Shown: one piece after another, positions 10,127 through 64,000 of the stretch
Position numbering within the stretch: the stretch's first letter is position 1
Layout: each line of letters starts with the position of its first letter
Sequence record: MT446392.1
Direction: 5' to 3' (one strand)
Length of the DNA stretch: 64,000 nucleotides
Source: Escherichia virus TH15
Notes under the pieces: generated by a model
Databases searched by the model: none
What the model saw: only the letters and a program-made list of their open reading frames with translations
Told to the model about the DNA's origin: nothing
Program-made: the position numbers and the translations under genes

Positions 10127-10399
10127 ATGAAAACTTTCAATGAATTTTTCAACGAGTCCCAACTGAATGAAGAAGTAAAAATTAGTAAATCAGTCAAAGC
10201 TATGATTGACAATATCAATCACCTGTATAGCATTGACTTAACTGACCATATAACAATTGGCAACAAACGCAACTTTTTCGCGTTTGACATTTCAGAACTT
10301 GACCAGAACCAAATTAATAACATTGAGCGTTTTGCCAATGATAAGGGTCTCCGCCACGAGACAGCTGGTTATAAAAAATATGCAATTTATCTAAAATAG
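10127..10399 (+). CDS. internal-protein-like protein with capsid targeting sequence (MKTFNEFFNE)
   Basis: 90 aa; CTS-type N-terminus. Confidence 0.6.
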   Translation: MKTFNEFFNESQLNEEVKISKSVKAMIDNINHLYSIDLTDHITIGNKRNFFAFDISELDQNQINNIERFANDKGLRHETAGYKKYAIYLK

Positions 10400-10707: not shown

Positions 10708-10742
10708 TGTACATGATGGGATAACTGCAGTATAATTATCCC
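10707..10742 (+). promoter_or_regulatory. early promoter cassette: -35 ATGTAC, -10 TATAAT inside palindrome GGGATA...TATCCC
   Basis: -35-like hexamer, 18-nt spacer, TATAAT; GGGATA(n6)TATAAT-TATCCC palindrome; leader ATCAACTACTGGAG. Confidence 0.6.
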
Positions 10743-10762: not shown

Positions 10763-11041
10763 ATGAAAACTTATCAAGAATTTATTAACGAATCAATTAG
10801 TCACCCGGATATGCTGGAAGACCTGAAAGGACATCTGATGGTTAAGGCCAAACCGGTTGATGGTGGCGCATTTGAGTTGTTTCTTGTTAAAGGCGAAAAC
10901 GGTCCTGATAACAAGAAAGTTTCAGCAATGATGTTGACTAAAGGTTACAAAGTCAGTTCTTCCTGGAATGCTCCATTCACTTACGCGGTAAGCCCTCGTG
11001 AACTGAAAAAAGTTAAAGCTGGACAATATACAAAAATTTAG
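10763..11041 (+). CDS. internal-protein-like protein with capsid targeting sequence (MKTYQEFINE)
   Basis: 92 aa; N-terminus matches the T4 IPI/IPII/IPIII targeting peptide. Confidence 0.65.
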   Translation: MKTYQEFINESISHPDMLEDLKGHLMVKAKPVDGGAFELFLVKGENGPDNKKVSAMMLTKGYKVSSSWNAPFTYAVSPRELKKVKAGQYTKI

Positions 11042-11096: not shown

Positions 11097-11351
11097 ATGA
11101 AAACTTATCAAGAATTTATTAACGAAGCCGCAGATGCAAAAGTTGAGTTTGCTTACGTTGGTTCCCCGCGCGGCAGTTTTTCTAATGAAGAATTCCGTCG
11201 TTCACTGGACAATTTCATGCAGTTAAGTGCTGAAGTATCGCATGATGGCCGTTATGACATCGTTACTATTAGCGGTTCTGAAGACCTTATCAAAAAGTGG
11301 TACAAGCAGAAAGATGTTGAGATGCGTTACTATCGTATCCCTAAAAAATAA
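11097..11351 (+). CDS. internal-protein-like protein with capsid targeting sequence (MKTYQEFINE)
   Basis: 84 aa; CTS-type N-terminus. Confidence 0.65.
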   Translation: MKTYQEFINEAADAKVEFAYVGSPRGSFSNEEFRRSLDNFMQLSAEVSHDGRYDIVTISGSEDLIKKWYKQKDVEMRYYRIPKK

Positions 11352-23472: not shown

Positions 23473-23736
23473 ATGAAAACTTATCAAGAATTTATTACTG
23501 AATCTGCCAAAGCTCCTGCTGGTTCCTTTAAAGTCCGTGCCTTCGCTGGTGATGCTGAAGACTTTGGCTCACTGAAGCGCAACGGTTATTCTTTCTTTGG
23601 TGGTGATGGTAAAGAAATTGTTACCTATGCAAAACGTCGCGAAATCGCATTCGTGGTTGCTGGTAAGAAAGTATCCCCAGAAGATATTGAAGTTGACTTT
23701 GAGACCTTTGGTATTGTTTCTGGCGGTAAAGCTTAA
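23473..23736 (+). CDS. internal-protein-like protein with capsid targeting sequence (MKTYQEFITE)
   Basis: Start at Met 14 of ORF 23434..23736; CTS-type N-terminus; position matches T4 ipII/ipIII near denV. Confidence 0.6.
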   Translation: MKTYQEFITESAKAPAGSFKVRAFAGDAEDFGSLKRNGYSFFGGDGKEIVTYAKRREIAFVVAGKKVSPEDIEVDFETFGIVSGGKA

Positions 23737-58020: not shown

Positions 58021-59199
58021 ATGTCTATTGCAGATTTGAAATCCCGTTTGATTAAAGCTTCTACATCCAAAATGACCGCGACTCTTACCAAGTCCAAGTT
58101 TTTTAATGATAAAGATGTAGTTCGTACAAAAATCCCGATGCTGAACATTGCAATCAGCGGTGCACTAGATGGTGGTATGCAGTCAGGTTTGACTATTTTT
58201 GCTGGTCCGTCAAAACACTTTAAATCCAATATGGGTTTAACGATGGTCTCTGCATATATGAACAAATACCCCGAAGCAATCTGTTTGTTCTATGATTCAG
58301 AATTTGGTATCACAGAAGCCTATCTGCGTGCAATGAAAGTAGACCCGGAACGTGTTATTCATACACCAATCCAGTCGGTTGAACAATTGAAAGTTGATAT
58401 GGTTAACCAGCTTGAAGCAATTGAGCGTGGTGAAAAAGTCATTATCTTTATTGACTCAATCGGTAACATGGCGTCGAAAAAAGAAACAGAAGATGCGATG
58501 AACGAAAAAGTCGTTGGTGATATGACTCGCGCTAAATCCCTGAAATCTCTGTTCCGTATTGTTACCCCATATTTTAGTATCAAGGATATTCCTTGTGTCG
58601 CGGTTAACCATACAATTGAGACGATTGAGATGTATAGCAAAACCGTTATGACCGGTGGTACAGGTGTTATGTATTCTGCGGACACCGTATTCATTATCGG
58701 CAAACGCCAGATTAAAGAAACCGGTAAAGAGCTTGAAGGTTTCCAATTTGTACTGAACGCCGAAAAATCTCGTATGGTCAAAGAGAAAAGTAAATTCTTC
58801 ATTGATGTAAAATTCGATGGTGGTATTGACCCGTATTCTGGCCTGCTTGATATGGCAATGGAAATTGGATTTGTGGTGAAGCCGAAAGTTGGTTGGTATA
58901 ACCGTGAATATCTTGATGTTGAGACCGGTGAAATGGTCCGCGAAGAAAAATCATGGCGAGCAAAAGATACTAACTGCACTGAATTCTGGGGCCCGCTGTT
59001 CAAGCACGAACCTTTCCGTGATGCAATCAAACGTCATTACCAACTGGGTGCAATCGATAGCAATGCTGTTGTTGATGCCGAAGTTGATGAGCTTATTAGT
59101 TCGAAAGTTGAAAAATACTCTGCACCAGAAGGCAAATCAAAACCATCTGCGGCAGACATCGAAAACGATTTAGATATGATGGAAGACCTTGATGAGTGA
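58021..59199 (+). CDS. uvsX: recombinase UvsX (RecA-like)
   Basis: 392 aa; ...LKSRLIKASTSKMTA...KIPMLNIAISGALDGGMQSGLTIFAGPSKHFKSN... closely parallels T4 UvsX. Confidence 0.9.
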   Translation: MSIADLKSRLIKASTSKMTATLTKSKFFNDKDVVRTKIPMLNIAISGALDGGMQSGLTIFAGPSKHFKSNMGLTMVSAYMNKYPEAICLFYDSEFGITEAYLRAMKVDPERVIHTPIQSVEQLKVDMVNQLEAIERGEKVIIFIDSIGNMASKKETEDAMNEKVVGDMTRAKSLKSLFRIVTPYFSIKDIPCVAVNHTIETIEMYSKTVMTGGTGVMYSADTVFIIGKRQIKETGKELEGFQFVLNAEKSRMVKEKSKFFIDVKFDGGIDPYSGLLDMAMEIGFVVKPKVGWYNREYLDVETGEMVREEKSWRAKDTNCTEFWGPLFKHEPFRDAIKRHYQLGAIDSNAVVDAEVDELISSKVEKYSAPEGKSKPSAADIENDLDMMEDLDE

Positions 59200-59533
59200 T
59201 ATCGATTTATCTGATTTAGATAATTTCGAGAAAGATGCGGAGGGAGCTAAGGCTCCTTCTGTGCCTTACTACGAAAAAAGTTTGGAGATTATCCGGCAAT
59301 CCATGGGAACTGTACGACAGGAAATTCTGTTATCACTTCCCGATGGGTCCAGTCACATCGTGTACGTAACCGGAATTAAAATTGAACCATCTGGAAAAGT
59401 TTCAGTTGATTTCGGCACCCCTTCTGAAGACCGCAAAGCGGAGCTTGCAGTGCATGTAGAAAAGTGTGTTACAATGCAAATACAAGATGAAATTGATAAG
59501 ATTAAAATGAAAAAGAGGTGGTGGAAGTGGTAG
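59189..59533 (+). CDS. 40: gp40-like protein
   Basis: 114-aa ORF between uvsX and gene 41 as in T4. Confidence 0.5.
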   Translation: MMSDIDLSDLDNFEKDAEGAKAPSVPYYEKSLEIIRQSMGTVRQEILLSLPDGSSHIVYVTGIKIEPSGKVSVDFGTPSEDRKAELAVHVEKCVTMQIQDEIDKIKMKKRWWKW

Positions 59534-60957
59534 AAACTATTTTATCCCAGCTACTCTTTAACAAGGAATATTTTGTTAAAGTCTGGCCATATCTGAATAA
59601 TACATATTTTGAAAAGGGTCCTGCGAAGACCCTTTTTAATACGATTAACGAACATGTAAAAGAATATCAAGCAGTGCCAACTAAGACTGCACTTGATATC
59701 GCGCTCGACGGTTCTGACCTTTCTGAAGTTGAATATGAAGGCACAAAGAAACTCTTAGGAGTCCTGGCCGATACTCCAGAAGACCAGGAATGGTTGGTCA
59801 GAGAAACCGAGAAGTATGTACAGAAGTCTGCGATGTTCAATGCCACATCCAGGATTATCGAAATCCAGAGTAATGCCGAACTTCCGAAAGATAAGCGTGA
59901 TAAACGAATCCCGGATATCGGGGCTATCCCTGACATTATGCGCGATGCATTGTCTATTTGTTTTGACTCTGCTCTGGGCCATGACTGGTTAAACGATTAC
60001 GAAGCTCGATTCCAGACTTATCTGAACAAATCGAAGAAAGTTCCGTTCCGTATTAACATCCTGAATAAAATTACGAAGGGTGGAGTTGAGTACGGTACAG
60101 AGAACGTTTTACTAGCCGGGACAAACGTCGGGAAATCCCTTGGACTCTGTTCATTAGCCGCTGACTATCTTCAGACTGGTCATAACGTTCTTTATATAAG
60201 CATGGAAATGGCTGAAGAAGTATGTGCCAAACGTATTGATGCCAACTTGCTGGATGTGTCTCTGGATGATATTGATGAAGGTCATATATCATGGGCGGAA
60301 TATAAAGCTAAGATGGAAAAATGGCGTGCTTCCGGGACTCTCGGGACTCTGAAGATAAAACAATATCCAACTGGGGGCGCGCATGCGGATACCTTCCGTG
60401 CATTACTGAACGAGTACAAACTGAAGCAAGGATTTGTACCAGATGTGATTATTGTTGACTACCTGGCAATCTGCGCAAGCTCAAGACTGAAAACGTTTAC
60501 CGAAAACAGTTACGGCCTGATTAAGATGGTTGCAGAAGAACTTCGTGGTCTGGCGGTCGAGAAAAATGTGGTCCTATGGACCGCGGCGCAGACAACCAGG
60601 GGCGCGAACGTTGCAGCTGAGATTGATATGGCTGACATCGCAGAATCCTTTGGTATTGCTCACACGGCTGACTTTATGTTGGGTGTTGTTGAGACCGAAG
60701 AATTCGCTCAAATGGGACTGCAGTTAATCAAACAGCTTAAGTCTCGTTATGGCGATAAGAACTACTATAATAAATTCAAGATGGGTGTTAAGAAAGGTAA
60801 TCAACGCTGGTATGAGGTTGATGATGATTCAGCTCCTAAACAAGGCCCTACGGTGAAAGAAGCCACTGGTGAGATGAATCGTCAGGCTGAAATGAATAGA
60901 CAAACCAGGGTCAACAGGAGCGACCTGGATGACCTTGCCGCTCAAATGAAATTTTAA
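59518..60957 (+). CDS. 41: replicative DNA helicase gp41
   Basis: 479 aa with GTG start (59518 or 59527); ...LFNKEYFVKVWPYLNNTYFE...GTNVGKSLGLCSLAADYLQTGHNVLYISMEMAEE... closely parallels T4 gp41. Confidence 0.9.
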   Translation: MVEVVETILSQLLFNKEYFVKVWPYLNNTYFEKGPAKTLFNTINEHVKEYQAVPTKTALDIALDGSDLSEVEYEGTKKLLGVLADTPEDQEWLVRETEKYVQKSAMFNATSRIIEIQSNAELPKDKRDKRIPDIGAIPDIMRDALSICFDSALGHDWLNDYEARFQTYLNKSKKVPFRINILNKITKGGVEYGTENVLLAGTNVGKSLGLCSLAADYLQTGHNVLYISMEMAEEVCAKRIDANLLDVSLDDIDEGHISWAEYKAKMEKWRASGTLGTLKIKQYPTGGAHADTFRALLNEYKLKQGFVPDVIIVDYLAICASSRLKTFTENSYGLIKMVAEELRGLAVEKNVVLWTAAQTTRGANVAAEIDMADIAESFGIAHTADFMLGVVETEEFAQMGLQLIKQLKSRYGDKNYYNKFKMGVKKGNQRWYEVDDDSAPKQGPTVKEATGEMNRQAEMNRQTRVNRSDLDDLAAQMKF

Positions 60958-60968
60958 AATATTTTAAA

Positions 60969-60989
60969 AGGGGCTTACAGCCCCTTTTT
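60969..60989 (+). terminator. rho-independent terminator after gene 41
   Basis: AGGGGC-TTACA-GCCCCT followed by TTTTTC. Confidence 0.65.
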
Positions 60990-61002
60990 CTTATGTTATA
61001 AT
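60973..61002 (+). promoter_or_regulatory. early promoter overlapping the terminator loop (-35 GCTTAC, -10 TATAAT)
   Basis: 18-nt spacer; leader GACCCTATCAACTACTGGAG. Confidence 0.45.
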
Positions 61003-61028
61003 GACCCTATCAACTACTGGAGAATAAA

Positions 61029-61346
61029 ATGAAAACTATTGATTGCAAAGCGGAATACAAAGTTTATTATCATGGCTCAAGCTCTAATGCTGGAATCCAA
61101 AATATGCTTTGCCCTCCTGATGCAACTGGTGTTCTGTCAGAAGTTGGGCGCAAGAAAAATTTAGGGCGTGTGTTTTTTACTGAAGATATTGGTTTGGCAC
61201 GTATCTATGCAGGAAGAGCAGCTCGTTCAGTGGGAGGAGAACCCCGTCTTTATCGTGTGATTGCACCTGTTGATGTGGTTTGTTTAAATGATACTAAAGG
61301 CGCAACAGTTTATCACGCAGACTGGGCGTTTTGTGAGGAAATCTAA
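61029..61346 (+). CDS. small protein with ADP-ribosyltransferase-fold-like H-G-S motif (tentative)
   Basis: 105 aa; KVYYHGSSSNAGIQNML...GRVFFTEDIGLARIYA resembles the H-G-S ... aromatic ... acidic layout of PARP/Tpt1-type folds. Confidence 0.3.
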   Translation: MKTIDCKAEYKVYYHGSSSNAGIQNMLCPPDATGVLSEVGRKKNLGRVFFTEDIGLARIYAGRAARSVGGEPRLYRVIAPVDVVCLNDTKGATVYHADWAFCEEI

Positions 61347-61559
61347 ATGTATAAATTAGAGAACGTAGTGTTTATTGGTTGGTTTGAAAATGGTAATATG
61401 TTTACCAAAGAAACCGCGCTGGATGTTAGTGACCAAAAAATGATTGAATGGGTTACGGTGCAGTATGCAGAGGTGAATAATGCGCTGGTGAAAGCCTTTG
61501 TTAATGACAATAAAGTTTTTGAATGTGATTATCGTATCCACTTATCTGAGGAAATCTAA
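61347..61559 (+). CDS. hypothetical small protein, paralogue of 61560..61901
   Basis: 70 aa; shares the ...NNALVKAFVNDNKVFECD block with the next ORF; junction GAGGAAATCTAAATG on both sides. Confidence 0.45.
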   Translation: MYKLENVVFIGWFENGNMFTKETALDVSDQKMIEWVTVQYAEVNNALVKAFVNDNKVFECDYRIHLSEEI

Positions 61560-61901
61560 ATGGCTTTTAATCCAGAAGACCGCGTAAAAGTAACAATCAA
61601 AGTGAGTGCTGTTGGCGTTCCATCTTTTGAGCGCTCAAGTATGTTCCATCCCGCAGGTATTCACTGGTATGTTCAGAAGACTGCTGATAACTATAATGCG
61701 CTTGTTGAAGCTTTTGTTGATGACAAGCTAATTCATAAAGTAGACATGCGTAAGGGTACCGCATTGCGTAATCTGATTTTGACCGTTGAAGCGCAACTGT
61801 TAAATGAAGAAATCTGCCTTACTGATATTGAAGCAGCTCTTCATATTGCACGTGCTGAATATTACAACTTGACCGGTTTTTCAGTTGAAGGCGAAAAATA
61901 A
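61560..61901 (+). CDS. hypothetical protein, paralogue of 61347..61559
   Basis: 113 aa; shares the ...YNALVEAFVDDKLIHKVD block. Confidence 0.45.
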   Translation: MAFNPEDRVKVTIKVSAVGVPSFERSSMFHPAGIHWYVQKTADNYNALVEAFVDDKLIHKVDMRKGTALRNLILTVEAQLLNEEICLTDIEAALHIARAEYYNLTGFSVEGEK

Positions 61902-61936
61902 GTGTACAACAAAGGGATAATGCAGTATATTATCCC
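61902..61936 (+). promoter_or_regulatory. early promoter cassette: -35 GTGTAC, -10 TATATT inside palindrome GGGATAA...TATCCC
   Basis: 18-nt spacer; leader ATCAACTACTGAGGAG. Confidence 0.55.
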
Positions 61937-61959
61937 TATCAACTACTGAGGAGATTGAA

Positions 61960-62253
61960 ATGAAAAAGTTATTAATCGCGGCAATTCTTACCGTAGCATC
62001 ATGTGGTACAGCTCCTGTAACCGCTGGACTTGATAAAGACCTTTGTGAGTGGTCTATGACTGCTGACCAGACTGATGTTGAACATCAGATTTATGCTGAT
62101 ATCATGAATATTACTAAACGTGACCGCCCAGATATGGTTAAAGAAGTATCTGACCAACTGGCTTCTGGCGACGTTATGCAGTATAACTATGTTCTGTATT
62201 GCGATGCTTCATTTGACAACAGCAAGATTGTTCAATGGGTTACAGGTGAATAA
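61960..62253 (+). CDS. putative lipoprotein
   Basis: 97 aa; signal peptide with lipobox TVASC. Confidence 0.5.
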   Translation: MKKLLIAAILTVASCGTAPVTAGLDKDLCEWSMTADQTDVEHQIYADIMNITKRDRPDMVKEVSDQLASGDVMQYNYVLYCDASFDNSKIVQWVTGE

Positions 62254-62254
62254 A

Positions 62255-62695
62255 ATGATTAACAGAAATTTAGTTATCAAAAAACTTCGTTGTAAAAATC
62301 AAAATGCACAGGCATACAGGATGTTTTGGAGCGACGACCCCATCCAATACCTGGGTTATTTTCTTGTTGATAGTGATAATAGAATTACGTTTGCTCATAA
62401 ACTTCTTAACAAAGAATTAAACCATTGGCAAGAACTTATTGCGGTCAAGTCTAAATTATTTTCGCGCAATACAATGCACCAATTGGTTTATTTTTTCGCT
62501 GATGGTATTCCTGACAAGGTTGAATTTGATGGGTTTGAATTTAAAGACATCAACCCTGATAATGAATTGAATGACAGTATTGTTAATATGGGTATCCCGG
62601 GTAAGTACATCAAAAACAGTCTTTTGAAACTTCTGGAAACTCCTGTATATTCAGTTGACGACCAAATTTTTAATGCCTTCATGAAGCGAGATTAA
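62255..62695 (+). CDS. hypothetical protein, C-terminal DDQIFNAFMKRD tail
   Basis: Start at Met 46 of ORF 62120..62695, directly after the upstream stop; C-terminal tail shared with the next gene. Confidence 0.45.
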   Translation: MINRNLVIKKLRCKNQNAQAYRMFWSDDPIQYLGYFLVDSDNRITFAHKLLNKELNHWQELIAVKSKLFSRNTMHQLVYFFADGIPDKVEFDGFEFKDINPDNELNDSIVNMGIPGKYIKNSLLKLLETPVYSVDDQIFNAFMKRD

Positions 62696-62696
62696 T

Positions 62697-63056
62697 ATGA
62701 GTTATTATAATTTTCTGAATTTTGAACTGGTGAGCAATAATGATGGTAATGCCCGTTATGAATTTCGTGAGCCTCGGTTTAATCAGGCGATTGGTTATAT
62801 TATCGTTAAAGATGATGTTATCATAAAGGCTCGCTCATTTATGGTAATGAGTGGACCTTATGAAGATACTCGTGGCTATCCATTTGATAAAAAGAATGTA
62901 CGCGATTGTGCAGCATGGATAACCGGAAACCCTGAAATTGGGGTCATGATATCTACTGAAGCAAATGACATTCTGGAAGGGGCTTGGGTTAAAGCTCAAG
63001 AACTGCCTACTGATATTGATGACCAGATTTTTAATGCCTTCATGAAGCGAGGTTAA
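62697..63056 (+). CDS. hypothetical protein, C-terminal DDQIFNAFMKRG tail
   Basis: 119 aa; the last 12 codons plus stop/start junction are near-identical to those of the preceding gene. Confidence 0.45.
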   Translation: MSYYNFLNFELVSNNDGNARYEFREPRFNQAIGYIIVKDDVIIKARSFMVMSGPYEDTRGYPFDKKNVRDCAAWITGNPEIGVMISTEANDILEGAWVKAQELPTDIDDQIFNAFMKRG

Positions 63057-63057
63057 T

Positions 63058-63279
63058 ATGTTTGTTTTGACCCAATTCTCTAAAGCAATATATAGTTACT
63101 CTTGTCAGTGGGAAGTCTTTATTGATACTCCTTCGCCTAAGTATGGTGTTTTTGGACGAGTAACTACACAAGCTTACGTTGCGCGACCGACTAAACGTCA
63201 GATTCGTAAGCTTAAAAAGGCACATCGTCAATTGATTAAAAGAAGGGAACAATATGAGTGCAATGTGTACGGGCTCTAA
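63058..63279 (+). CDS. hypothetical basic small protein
   Basis: 73-aa ORF, translationally coupled. Confidence 0.4.
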   Translation: MFVLTQFSKAIYSYSCQWEVFIDTPSPKYGVFGRVTTQAYVARPTKRQIRKLKKAHRQLIKRREQYECNVYGL

Positions 63280-63445
63280 GATTTCGGTCTTCCAGATTTT
63301 TGAAGAATATGAAATCGTGTCGCAAGACCAAGAAGCAATCCATGTTATCGCTGATGATGGTGTTACCTGGATTATTCCATTGTATCATGAAGACACTTAT
63401 GAAGTGACTGATGCAAATGGTGATAAAGCTATCTTCGTTGTATAA
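63254..63445 (+). CDS. hypothetical small protein
   Basis: 63-aa ORF. Confidence 0.4.
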   Translation: MSAMCTGSKISVFQIFEEYEIVSQDQEAIHVIADDGVTWIIPLYHEDTYEVTDANGDKAIFVV

Positions 63446-63447
63446 AT
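63440..63447 (+). promoter_or_regulatory. putative late promoter TATAAATA
   Basis: Exact TATAAATA about 17 nt upstream of the ATG at 63464. Confidence 0.4.
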
Positions 63448-63463
63448 AGCGGAAAGGGGGTGT

Positions 63464-63631
63464 TATGAAAACATTCAAAGATTTTATAAACGAAGATATG
63501 GTTGCAGGTGATGCAGGTGGAAACCCAACTAATATCGCAACAGGTACCACTTCCGGGGCAGTTGTCAATAAAGGCCCTGAACAAATCCCATCAAAAAAGC
63601 GTAAGAATAAAGACGATAAACCTACAGTATA
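63464..63631 (+). CDS. small protein with capsid-targeting-type N-terminus (MKTFKDFINE; 55 aa, below the ORF-track cutoff)
   Basis: Hand-translated MKTFKDFINEDMVAGDAGGNPTNIATGTTSGAVVNKGPEQIPSKKRKNKDDKPTV; SD aaaggggg; preceded by a late-promoter motif. Confidence 0.45.
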
Positions 63632-63664
63632 ATGGTCCTTCGGGGCCATTGAAATGAGGAAACT

Positions 63665-64000
63665 ATGTCATATATTGATAGAGAATTTGCAATCAGAGCT
63701 TTATCGTATCAACCACGTTATAGAGAAGTCACCGGGAGCACATTTAAGGCAAACTGTCGTTGTAAGGTTTGCGGTGACTCCCAGAAAGATTCACACAAGG
63801 CCCGATTCTGGGCGTATACCAATCCGTCTGATGGTGCGGTTTACGTGAAATGTTTTAACTGTGACTACTCCACGCATATAAGCAAATACATAAAAGAGTT
63901 TGAGCCGGATTTGCACCGGGAATATATGGTTGAGAAGTACAAGGAAAACGCCTTCGGTCGACAACGTAATGAAGTTGCAGAAGCTCCGAAAGAACAAGAA
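63665..64000 (+). CDS. 61: DNA primase gp61, N-terminal part (gene runs past window end)
   Basis: Hand-translated open frame from ATG 63665 to the window edge: ...CRCKVCGDSQKDSHKARFWAY...VKCFNCDYSTHISKYIKEFEPDLHREY... resembles the T4 gp61 zinc-binding N-terminus. Confidence 0.75.
   Translation, partial: MSYIDREFAIRALSYQPRYREVTGSTFKANCRCKVCGDSQKDSHKARFWAYTNPSDGAVYVKCFNCDYSTHISKYIKEFEPDLHREYMVEKYKENAFGRQRNEVAEAPKEQE

Follow-up and report, generated by a model that had tools for sequence, protein, structure and literature searches.

The interval between genes 41 and 61 of Escherichia virus TH15: probably an expanded T-even accessory cluster, with a constant, capsid-like gene 61.1

Introduction

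The helicase gene 41 and the primase gene 61 of T4 are separated by a run of small genes, and Selick et al. reportedly described five open reading frames (ORFs) there in 1993 (J Virol). In the T4 reference sequence (NC_000866) this gap spans 1,648 bp and holds dmd, 61.4 (tifA), sp, 61.2 (adfA) and 61.1, the RNAs of which are all classed as early in T4 transcriptomics. An early promoter drives dmd-tifA, and TifA, the product of 61.4, inhibits ToxN; the presence of Dmd (anti-RnlA), TifA and AdfA (gene 61.2, anti-DarT) has led to the proposal that the region may be an anti-toxin-antitoxin (anti-TA) island, with its remaining genes as candidate antitoxins (Srikant, Guegler and Laub 2022; PMC9391042). 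Here we describe the corresponding interval of Escherichia virus TH15 (MT446392.1), analysed within a stretch of 64,000 nucleotides that we refer to as the window, and we compare both the gene cluster as a whole and its last small gene, 61.1, with what is known from T4.

Two features of T4 head assembly bear on this last gene. The prohead protease removes the first 65 residues of the capsid protein gp23, with Glu65 as the cleavage position (PMC9958956). Additionally, the internal proteins IPII and IPIII carry N-terminal capsid targeting sequences of ten residues; in that of IPIII, positions 4 and 7 are important to targeting, positions 8 and 10 to processing (Mullaney and Black 1996, as reviewed in PMC9026906).

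Results and Discussion

Gene content and relation to the T4 cluster

The interval runs from 60958 to 63664 (2,707 bp). Its left anchor is gene 41 (59518..60957, plus strand), the replicative helicase ORF with a GTG start, which is annotated as gp41 in relatives and is 99% identical to gp41 of VR7-group phages. The right anchor is the 5' part of the primase gene 61 (63665..64000, plus strand), which runs past the window end; its translation carries the zinc-finger motif CRCKVCGDS...CFNCDY and was matched by T4 gp61 in tblastn. Nine co-oriented small ORFs lie between these anchors, starting at 61029, 61347, 61560, 61960, 62255, 62697, 63058, 63254 and 63465, and each of them matches a PHROG family with an E-value between 5e-26 and 2e-91, so that they are real genes and not chance ORFs. 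An earlier note on this DNA had counted ten; no tenth was found. Over its final 4.5 kb, the window shares 96% identity with the Escherichia phages TH57, PSD2001 and SP18 and 90% with vB_EcoM_VR7 (Gaprivervirus, Tevenvirinae), and the same genes are annotated in the same order in relatives. Scans of the block with Rfam, NCBIfam and PADLOC returned nothing meaningful.

Five of the window ORFs have T4 homologues by blastp (Dmd, Spackle, a TifA-like protein, an ORF resembling AdfA in its tail only, and gp61.1). The cluster shares with the T4 dmd-to-61.1 cluster its position and orientation, its Dmd, TifA, Spackle and gp61.1 homologues and the presence of early-type promoters upstream. It differs in that nine ORFs occupy 2.7 kb whereas T4 has five in 1.65 kb, in the addition of an ORF with a predicted ADP-ribosyltransferase (ART) fold, a second Dmd-like gene and a phrog_3249 ORF, in the position of the TifA-like gene, which lies further downstream, and in the replacement of the full-length AdfA of T4 by two ORFs that share only its tail. 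Taken together, these comparisons indicate that 60958-63664 is most probably a Gaprivervirus-type version of the known T-even 41-61 accessory cluster, expanded and reshuffled.

To place this arrangement among T4-type phages we used 45 IMG/VR loci fetched via gp41, together with T4 and several GenBank phages; 50 loci carry both anchor genes, and the results on distribution given here refer to these. The gap between the anchors ranges from 417 to 5,845 bp, and every ORF except 61.1 is patchily distributed. The Dmd-like gene is confined to VR7-group loci, the TifA-like gene shifts position, and full AdfA is present in T4- and JK45-type phages and absent from the VR7 group. Phage 212 has two extra ORFs after gene 41, VR7 has one extra ORF there and a further 61.4-like ORF, EAWsc9 is without the TifA-like gene, and VR26 is without both Dmd genes; gene content differs by indels even among phages more than 95% identical. 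Variation of this kind across loci points to a variable accessory region rather than to the single insertion that the earlier note had hoped to date by comparing the junction across relatives.

The same note had described genes 41 and 61 as essentially adjacent in T4, which the five-gene T4 gap contradicts, and had taken the 2.6 kb of the window as a lineage-specific accessory insertion into a tight junction that brought with it a misplaced late head gene. It is true that the interval is about 1 kb longer than in T4, that 61029, 61560, 62255 and 63254 are without a T4 counterpart (61029 and 63254 being annotated in VR7 as RB69 ORF040c-like and ORF033c-like, respectively), and that the G+C content falls to 0.33-0.34 around 62250-62850. 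However, five of the nine ORFs have homologues within the T4 gap itself, the other four are common to other genera (JS98-, RB69- and S16-type phages, for example), and the supposed head gene is present at every locus with both anchors. The comparison with T4 refutes the insertion reading, and we regard it as extremely improbable.

As a whole, the block is ordinary, being one more variant of a region whose variability was known and which had been proposed earlier to be an anti-toxin island. By homology to T4 and RB69 proteins with demonstrated activity, its products may neutralise host toxin-antitoxin defences; Dmd would counter RnlA/LsoA and the TifA-like protein would counter ToxN. In addition, Spackle would block superinfection by inhibiting the gp5 lysozyme. 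The block holds no full AdfA, so that anti-DarT activity cannot be assumed, and the promoter assignments discussed below are consensus matches only.

Gene 61.1 is the constant member of a variable region

The gp61.1 homologue of the window (63465..63632, plus strand) is a 55-residue protein that starts with MKTFKDFINE, continues with a segment resembling the N-fist of gp23, and ends in a basic tail; it is 86% identical to T4 gp61.1 over 42 residues. A homologue was found in 50 of the 50 loci. Its place is invariably within the 41-61 gap just upstream of gene 61, which it abuts in 46 of them. The spacing between the two genes is 3-47 nt in most loci and 643-758 nt in four, where a homing endonuclease or another ORF separates them. 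Likewise, KVP40-type vibriophages carry helicase, a 159-residue 61.1 and primase in that order. A head gene at this site would not be out of place, as had been claimed for the 55-residue ORF, and gene 40, which encodes the head vertex assembly chaperone (59189-59533), lies between uvsX (58021-59199, preceding the block) and gene 41 and overlaps both, so that head-assembly genes are already interspersed in the T4-type replication cluster.

The family comes in two forms. Short forms of 52-56 residues occur in the T4-, VR7-, JS98-, Klebsiella- and Enterobacter-phage groups, and long forms, of 127-160 residues in the loci compared and up to about 250 elsewhere, occur in S16, JK45, Acinetobacter, Serratia, Yersinia and Cronobacter phages. 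The long forms share a well-conserved, mostly helical N-terminal domain of about 105 residues. Fifteen residues are invariant among the short forms and 21 among the long, and the peptide sequence is under strong purifying selection.

This constancy of position raises the possibility that the likenesses to gp23 and to targeting sequences described below are an evolutionary relic and that 61.1 is kept for the expression of primase, through translational coupling or mRNA structure, or for the primosome. The gene stands before gene 61 without exception, in most cases abutting it; its stop codon is followed by a conserved hairpin or junction, and the gene order is kept even in KVP40-type phages. 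Such synteny, however, is expected of any core gene, in four loci 61.1 is separated from gene 61, and strong purifying selection acts on the peptide itself; we consider a link of this kind quite unlikely.

Relationship of gp61.1 to the N-terminal segment of gp23

Residues 2-38 of the window gp61.1 align without gaps to residues 57-93 of T4 gp23, with 51% identity. A phmmer search against all PDB sequences returned gp23 chains only (E 8.9e-5), and in a tblastn search of 50,697 phage genomes the capsid gene was the second match in many records and the sole match in Aeromonas, Vibrio and Proteus phages (E 1e-5 to 8e-4). Furthermore, the PHROG profiles of 61.1 matched gp23 residues 1-140 for both the short form (E 5e-10, gp23 59-101) and the long form (E 6e-8, gp23 40-101). 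When the family profiles were compared with nine T4 head proteins, gp23 alone matched, and gp22, gp67, gp68, gp21, gp24, Inh, Hoc and gp40 gave no match. The similarity is already registered in databases, where NCBI and UniRef name some 61.1 members "major capsid domain-containing protein".

In this alignment Glu10 of gp61.1 falls on Glu65 of gp23, the maturation cleavage site, so that the copied part comprises the cleavage site and the N-fist, after which the ORF continues with a tail rich in lysine and arginine. Besides this tail, gp61.1 differs from gp23 in having no HK97-fold body, and its segment, a conserved variant of its own (MVAGDxGG...GTTxGAxxNKGPE), is not a recent copy. An analysis of within-genome co-variation between gp61.1 and the gp23 N-fist in 37 paired genomes had no power, because the gp23 segment is nearly invariant.

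Two lineages stand apart in this respect. In L023 and L017 (capsid genes in L073 and L108) the 61.1 core reads GDSGYNAQNI or GDGGYDADNI, nearer to the capsid GD[HS]GYNA[DQ]NI than in other phages, and they are the only lineages among the paired genomes with a more gp23-like 61.1. Gene conversion between gene 23 and 61.1 may have occurred in these two lineages. We also considered a link of gp61.1 to the Lit/Gol system and rejected it; the Gol peptide, gp23 residues 93-122, lies just downstream of the segment copied in 61.1.

A candidate targeting sequence and cleavage site

The earlier note had recognised a capsid-targeting-type N-terminus in the ORF at 63465, and this observation is borne out by the likeness of MKTFKDFINE to the phage's own internal-protein-like ORFs; it differs from the MKTYQEFINE found elsewhere in the window only by Y4F, Q5K and E6D. 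Four small ORFs of 84-92 residues carry decapeptides of this type (10127-10399, 10763-11041, 11097-11351 and 23473-23736), their sequences being MKTFNEFFNE, MKTYQEFINE twice, and MKTYQEFITE. These four ORFs presumably encode internal head proteins.

As in the targeting sequences of T4 IPII and IPIII, the first ten residues of gp61.1 conform to MKT[FY]x[DE]FIxE, with aromatic side chains at 4 and 7, isoleucine at 8 and glutamate at 10; at the four positions that matter in IPIII (4, 7, 8 and 10), gp61.1 has F, F, I and E. As judged from sequence, I8-N9-E10 fits the Leu/Ile-x-Glu cleavage motif of the prohead protease gp21, ending at residue 10. The long forms have a different N-terminal domain and nevertheless keep a hydrophobic-x-Glu motif directly before MVAGD, with Glu109 nearly invariant. 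There are also differences from IPII and IPIII. The putative cargo of gp61.1 is a 45-residue homologue of the capsid protein and not a folded anti-restriction protein, and in other genera the decapeptide is replaced by the domain of about 105 residues.

In some distant members of the family (P0263, P0284, P0285 and P0267), the basic tail is followed by a second motif resembling a targeting or cleavage site, FKQFVE, and, beyond it, by an additional domain of about 100 residues. This arrangement suggests the architecture of a multi-cleavage precursor.

That both forms keep gp21-type motifs is the main reason why we favour, from sequence, a prohead-targeted and processed peptide. The first ten residues would direct the protein to the capsid, cleavage by gp21 would take place after Glu10, and the 45-residue peptide thus released would amount to a separate gp23 N-fist extended by a basic tail. 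We put this forward tentatively, as a possible rather than a probable role, that of a processed head-associated peptide.

A late-promoter-type motif upstream of 61.1

The octamer TATAAATA, of the T4 late-promoter type, lies at 63441..63448 on the plus strand, 16 nt upstream of the 61.1 ATG at 63465. The window contains six copies on the plus strand and none on the minus strand, where composition would lead one to expect roughly four per strand (an estimate), and all six lie 9-52 nt before the start of an ORF (ORFs of at least 40 residues), one of them 9 nt before another ORF with a targeting sequence. The motif that the earlier note had pointed out before the 55-residue ORF is thus present, but a single copy is not significant within the window, and only a comparison across phages makes it meaningful.

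In that comparison, five groups that differ in their upstream genes have canonical TATAAATA 21-35 nt ahead of the 61.1 ATG, and ATAAATA or TTAAATA variants occupy this site in most other lineages. TAAATA precedes 61.1 in 18 of 21 non-redundant upstream clusters vs 3.9% of 583 other ORF starts (P 6e-23), and canonical TATAAATA precedes it in 6 of the 21 vs 2.2% of other ORF starts (P 5e-6), P-values that overstate independence because the clusters share ancestry and the TAA is often the stop codon of the upstream gene. Despite this shared ancestry, conservation of the late-promoter-like signal before 61.1 beyond chance is still strong.

A more trivial origin would be that the octamer at 63441 is not a promoter and arose as a by-product of a TAA stop in an A+T-rich spacer. 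The motif does overlap the stop codon of ORF 63254, several copies per strand are expected by composition, and T4 has TATGAATA and not TATAAATA upstream of 61.1, which counts against a conserved late promoter. On the other hand, such a by-product would hardly place all six copies on the coding strand and shortly before ORF starts, or produce an enrichment that holds across clusters with different upstream genes, and we regard this origin as rather unlikely.

Timing, localisation and a possible mimic

The early class of the 61.1 RNA in T4 does not exclude a head protein, since IPI, IPII, IPIII and gp40 are classed as "early RNA, late protein" in the same dataset. Several other results weigh against a processed head peptide related to gp23. 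The gp61.1 protein was not detected in the T4 time-course proteome, our literature search found no experimental report of it in proheads or virions, and 61.1 is not listed in the supplementary data of a mass-spectrometric study of T4 heads. The search likewise found no paper that discusses the similarity between 61.1 and gp23 or assigns gp61.1 a function. Finally, the short-form profile retrieved no capsid protein at E <= 0.001 from a library of 1.84 billion proteins, its 54 matches there being 61.1 forms with the exception of one spurious repeat protein, so that the homology to gp23 rests on the smaller search spaces of PDB, the phage collection and PHROGs.

An early product with a capsid-like sequence could instead be a cytoplasmic mimic of the capsid N-terminus, one that never enters the head and interferes with a host factor recognising gp23, such as a defence sensor, a chaperone or a protease. 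In favour of this are the location of the gene in an anti-defence island, the early class of its T4 RNA and the disorder predicted for the N-fist-like part in isolation; host systems are also known to sense gp23, for example CmdTAC (PMC11618068). A sensor of the CmdC type, though, would probably be triggered rather than blocked by a mimic. Moreover, anti-defence genes tend to be patchily distributed, unlike the universal and highly conserved 61.1, and a mimic leaves the targeting-type decapeptide and the cleavage-type motif of both forms unexplained. A purely cytoplasmic role of this kind appears unlikely to us, and the processed, prohead-targeted peptide remains the role that we tentatively favour for gp61.1.

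The ART-fold protein encoded at 61029

The first ORF of the interval (61029..61346, plus strand; phrog_2110) encodes a 105-residue protein. Its family comprises 108 proteins with 53-97% identity, nearly all of about 95-115 residues, and the named members are almost all from phages. There is no sequence-level family match to ADP-ribosyltransferases. An AlphaFold model built from 31 sequences was confident (predicted local distance difference test, pLDDT, 87.7; predicted template modelling score, pTM, 0.78), and it matched the Tpt1 RNA 2'-phosphotransferase (8.6), the rifampin ADP-ribosyltransferase Arr (8.1), the anti-CRISPR AcrF11 (6.6), diphtheria toxin (6.1) and DarT (5.2), the remaining matches being nearly all ADP-ribosyltransferases. 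His15-Gly16, Arg41, Tyr60 and Arg63 are invariant in the family and Glu103 is nearly so. An ART fold for this protein, as the earlier note had surmised, is supported by these matches of the predicted structure. In comparison with the minimal ARTs of the H-Y-[E/D] type (Arr, Tpt1/KptA and AcrIF11), the window protein is shorter than any.

Dmd pair, Spackle, AdfA-tail, TifA-like and 63-residue proteins

The ORF at 61347..61559 (plus strand) encodes a Dmd homologue (PF17587, 72.3 bits vs a cutoff of 27) with 56% identity to T4 Dmd (E 1e-18). It is followed by a Dmd-like paralogue with a C-terminal extension of about 50 residues (61560..61901, plus strand; phrog_23762), which is 35% identical to T4 Dmd (E 4e-6), matches the PHROG Dmd family at E 9e-6, and matches the PDB Dmd chain 5hy3_B over residues 30-64. 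The two are tandem paralogues, as proposed earlier, with 31% identity over 58 residues (E 4e-4 within the window) and a 34-nt DNA repeat at 85%.

The ORF at 61960..62253 (plus strand) had been called a lipoprotein, and its V-A-S-C15 indeed fits the lipobox pattern. It encodes Spackle (sp), the periplasmic inhibitor of the gp5 tail lysozyme, with a signal peptide, conserved cysteines, a full-length match to the T4_Spackle family (PF25676, 147.8 bits, residues 1-96) and 66% identity to T4 Sp over 97 residues. A VTA/G site equivalent to the T4 maturation site is also present, and mature T4 Spackle is a soluble periplasmic fragment, Gly23-Glu97, that inhibits the gp5 lysozyme (PMC7677548) and begins past the cysteine, so that the lipoprotein assignment is not supported.

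Two ORFs with a common C-terminal tail come next, both ending DDQIFNAFMKR[DG], as had been noticed before. The first (62255..62695, plus strand; phrog_8539, E 2e-91) encodes 146 residues with the AdfA-type tail DDQIFNAFMKRD, and its BLAST match to T4 gp61.2 is in the tail only (85% over 13 residues). The second (62697..63056, plus strand; phrog_4122, E 2e-52) encodes 119 residues ending DDQIFNAFMKRG and is called '61.2' in the VR7 annotation; its match to the Pfam AdfA family PF23813, again confined to the tail, scores 21.4 bits, below the cutoff of 27. The likeness of both to T4 gp61.2 (AdfA) is thus limited to the last 13-21 residues or so, no AdfA match in the block reached the Pfam cutoff, and T4 gp61.2 has no full-length match in VR7-group loci. 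When the two were considered as split halves of AdfA, the signals beyond the tail were weak (z 3.7 and 2.6), the core of 62255 being weakly like the C-terminal half of gp61.2 (z 3.7).

The two halves of T4 gp61.2 itself (1633-2259 of locus L004, minus strand) are weakly alike (z 4.0; 1 of 300 shuffles). There are hints here of an internal duplication in T4 AdfA, in which case the tail-bearing ORFs of the window might be single modules.

The TifA/gp61.4-like protein (DUF7279) is encoded at 63058..63279 (plus strand), with a PF23945 score of 72.2 bits vs a cutoff of 24.5 and 39% identity to T4 gp61.4 (E 1e-11). The last ORF before 61.1 (63254..63445, plus strand; phrog_3249, E 3e-33) encodes 63 residues and has its stop codon inside TATAAATA; homologues precede 61.1 in JK45, S16 and JS98-type phages.

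Promoter cassettes and junction repeats

The region upstream of 61029 forms a cassette of early promoter, stem-loop and leader (60966..61028, plus strand), with a hairpin at 60966-60988, a sigma-70-like promoter at 60974-61002 and the leader CCCTATCAACTACTGGAG, followed by the 61029 ATG. In a promoter scan the site had 10 of 12 consensus matches and a TG extension. The G+C hairpin, which overlaps the promoter, has a predicted energy of -16.3 kcal/mol (z -2.8) and was called terminator-like. A second cassette (61903..61959, plus strand), a direct repeat of the first, lies upstream of sp and has a promoter-like site at 61903-61931 and a stem-loop at 61913-61937. The window contains eight such cassettes of about 70 nt, with a CC(C)(T)ATCAACTAC core at 10740, 11074, 11384, 22984, 29850, 41622, 61005 and 61934, and with a common layout of a GT[GT]TACA-type -35 element, a stem-loop overlapping a TATAAT-type -10 element, the leader CCCATCAACTACTG(A)GGAG and an ATG; two of them precede the internal-protein-like ORFs at 10763 and 11097.

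Arbiol, Comeau and Krisch are said to have described in 2010 promoter-early stem-loop (PeSL) cassettes of T4-type phages. The likeness is that of a repeated unit of early promoter and stem-loop flanking variable ORFs, and the cassette of the window looks like a reused early-promoter module, possibly one of these published elements. If consensus matches and the T4 precedent are a guide, the two cassettes would split the block into two early operons. The first would carry the ART-fold protein, Dmd and the Dmd-like paralogue; the second would carry Spackle, the two AdfA-tail proteins, the TifA-like protein, the 63-residue protein and gp61.1, and would run into the primase gene.

Repeats also mark several gene junctions. 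A 45-nt sequence is present at 62655..62699 and, with 93% identity, at 63016..63060 (both plus strand); it covers the last 12 codons, the stop codon, the Shine-Dalgarno site and the next ATG, and it is also found at the T4 61.2/61.1 boundary, preceding 61.1. A 21-nt junction (...GAGGAAATCTAAATG) occurs at 61329-61349 and 61542-61562, where it ends ORF 61029 and the Dmd gene and lies at the starts of both Dmd genes; because of it, the 61029 and Dmd proteins both end in EEI and the downstream genes begin one base past the stop. Repeated junctions of this kind are likely substrates of recombination that would mediate module exchange.

Between 61.1 and gene 61 lies a hairpin with a UUCG loop (AAUGGUCCUUCGGGGCCAUU; 63630..63651, plus strand; -11.8 kcal/mol), the 5' end of which falls within the 61.1 stop codon and the 3' end 13 nt short of the gene 61 ATG. 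Because it lacks a trailing T-run, it is not a terminator. The sequence TAATATAATGG following the 61.1 stop recurs in several other lineages.

Conclusions

Within a cluster of a known type, the second Dmd-like gene and the two AdfA-tail ORFs are natural candidates as inhibitors of other toxins. The 61029 protein, by its predicted structure among the smallest ART-fold proteins and heading a predicted anti-defence operon, is a candidate for an enzyme of counter-defence comparable to AcrIF11.

Of the genes in the region, only 61.1 is constant, and its product reads, in sequence, as a capsid N-terminus with a head-delivery tag. A fuller proposal, somewhat more doubtful than a head-associated role as such, is that gp61.1 is an unrecognised prohead-targeted substrate of gp21, that its freed N-fist peptide stays on the shell or is injected, and that its short form came about by a domain swap. 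If true, the peptide would occupy N-fist sites on the shell, for example beside the gp24 vertices, which are without an N-fist, or would travel in the head and be injected with the DNA, and the short T-even form would have arisen by swapping a targeting domain of about 105 residues for the ten-residue sequence of an internal protein.

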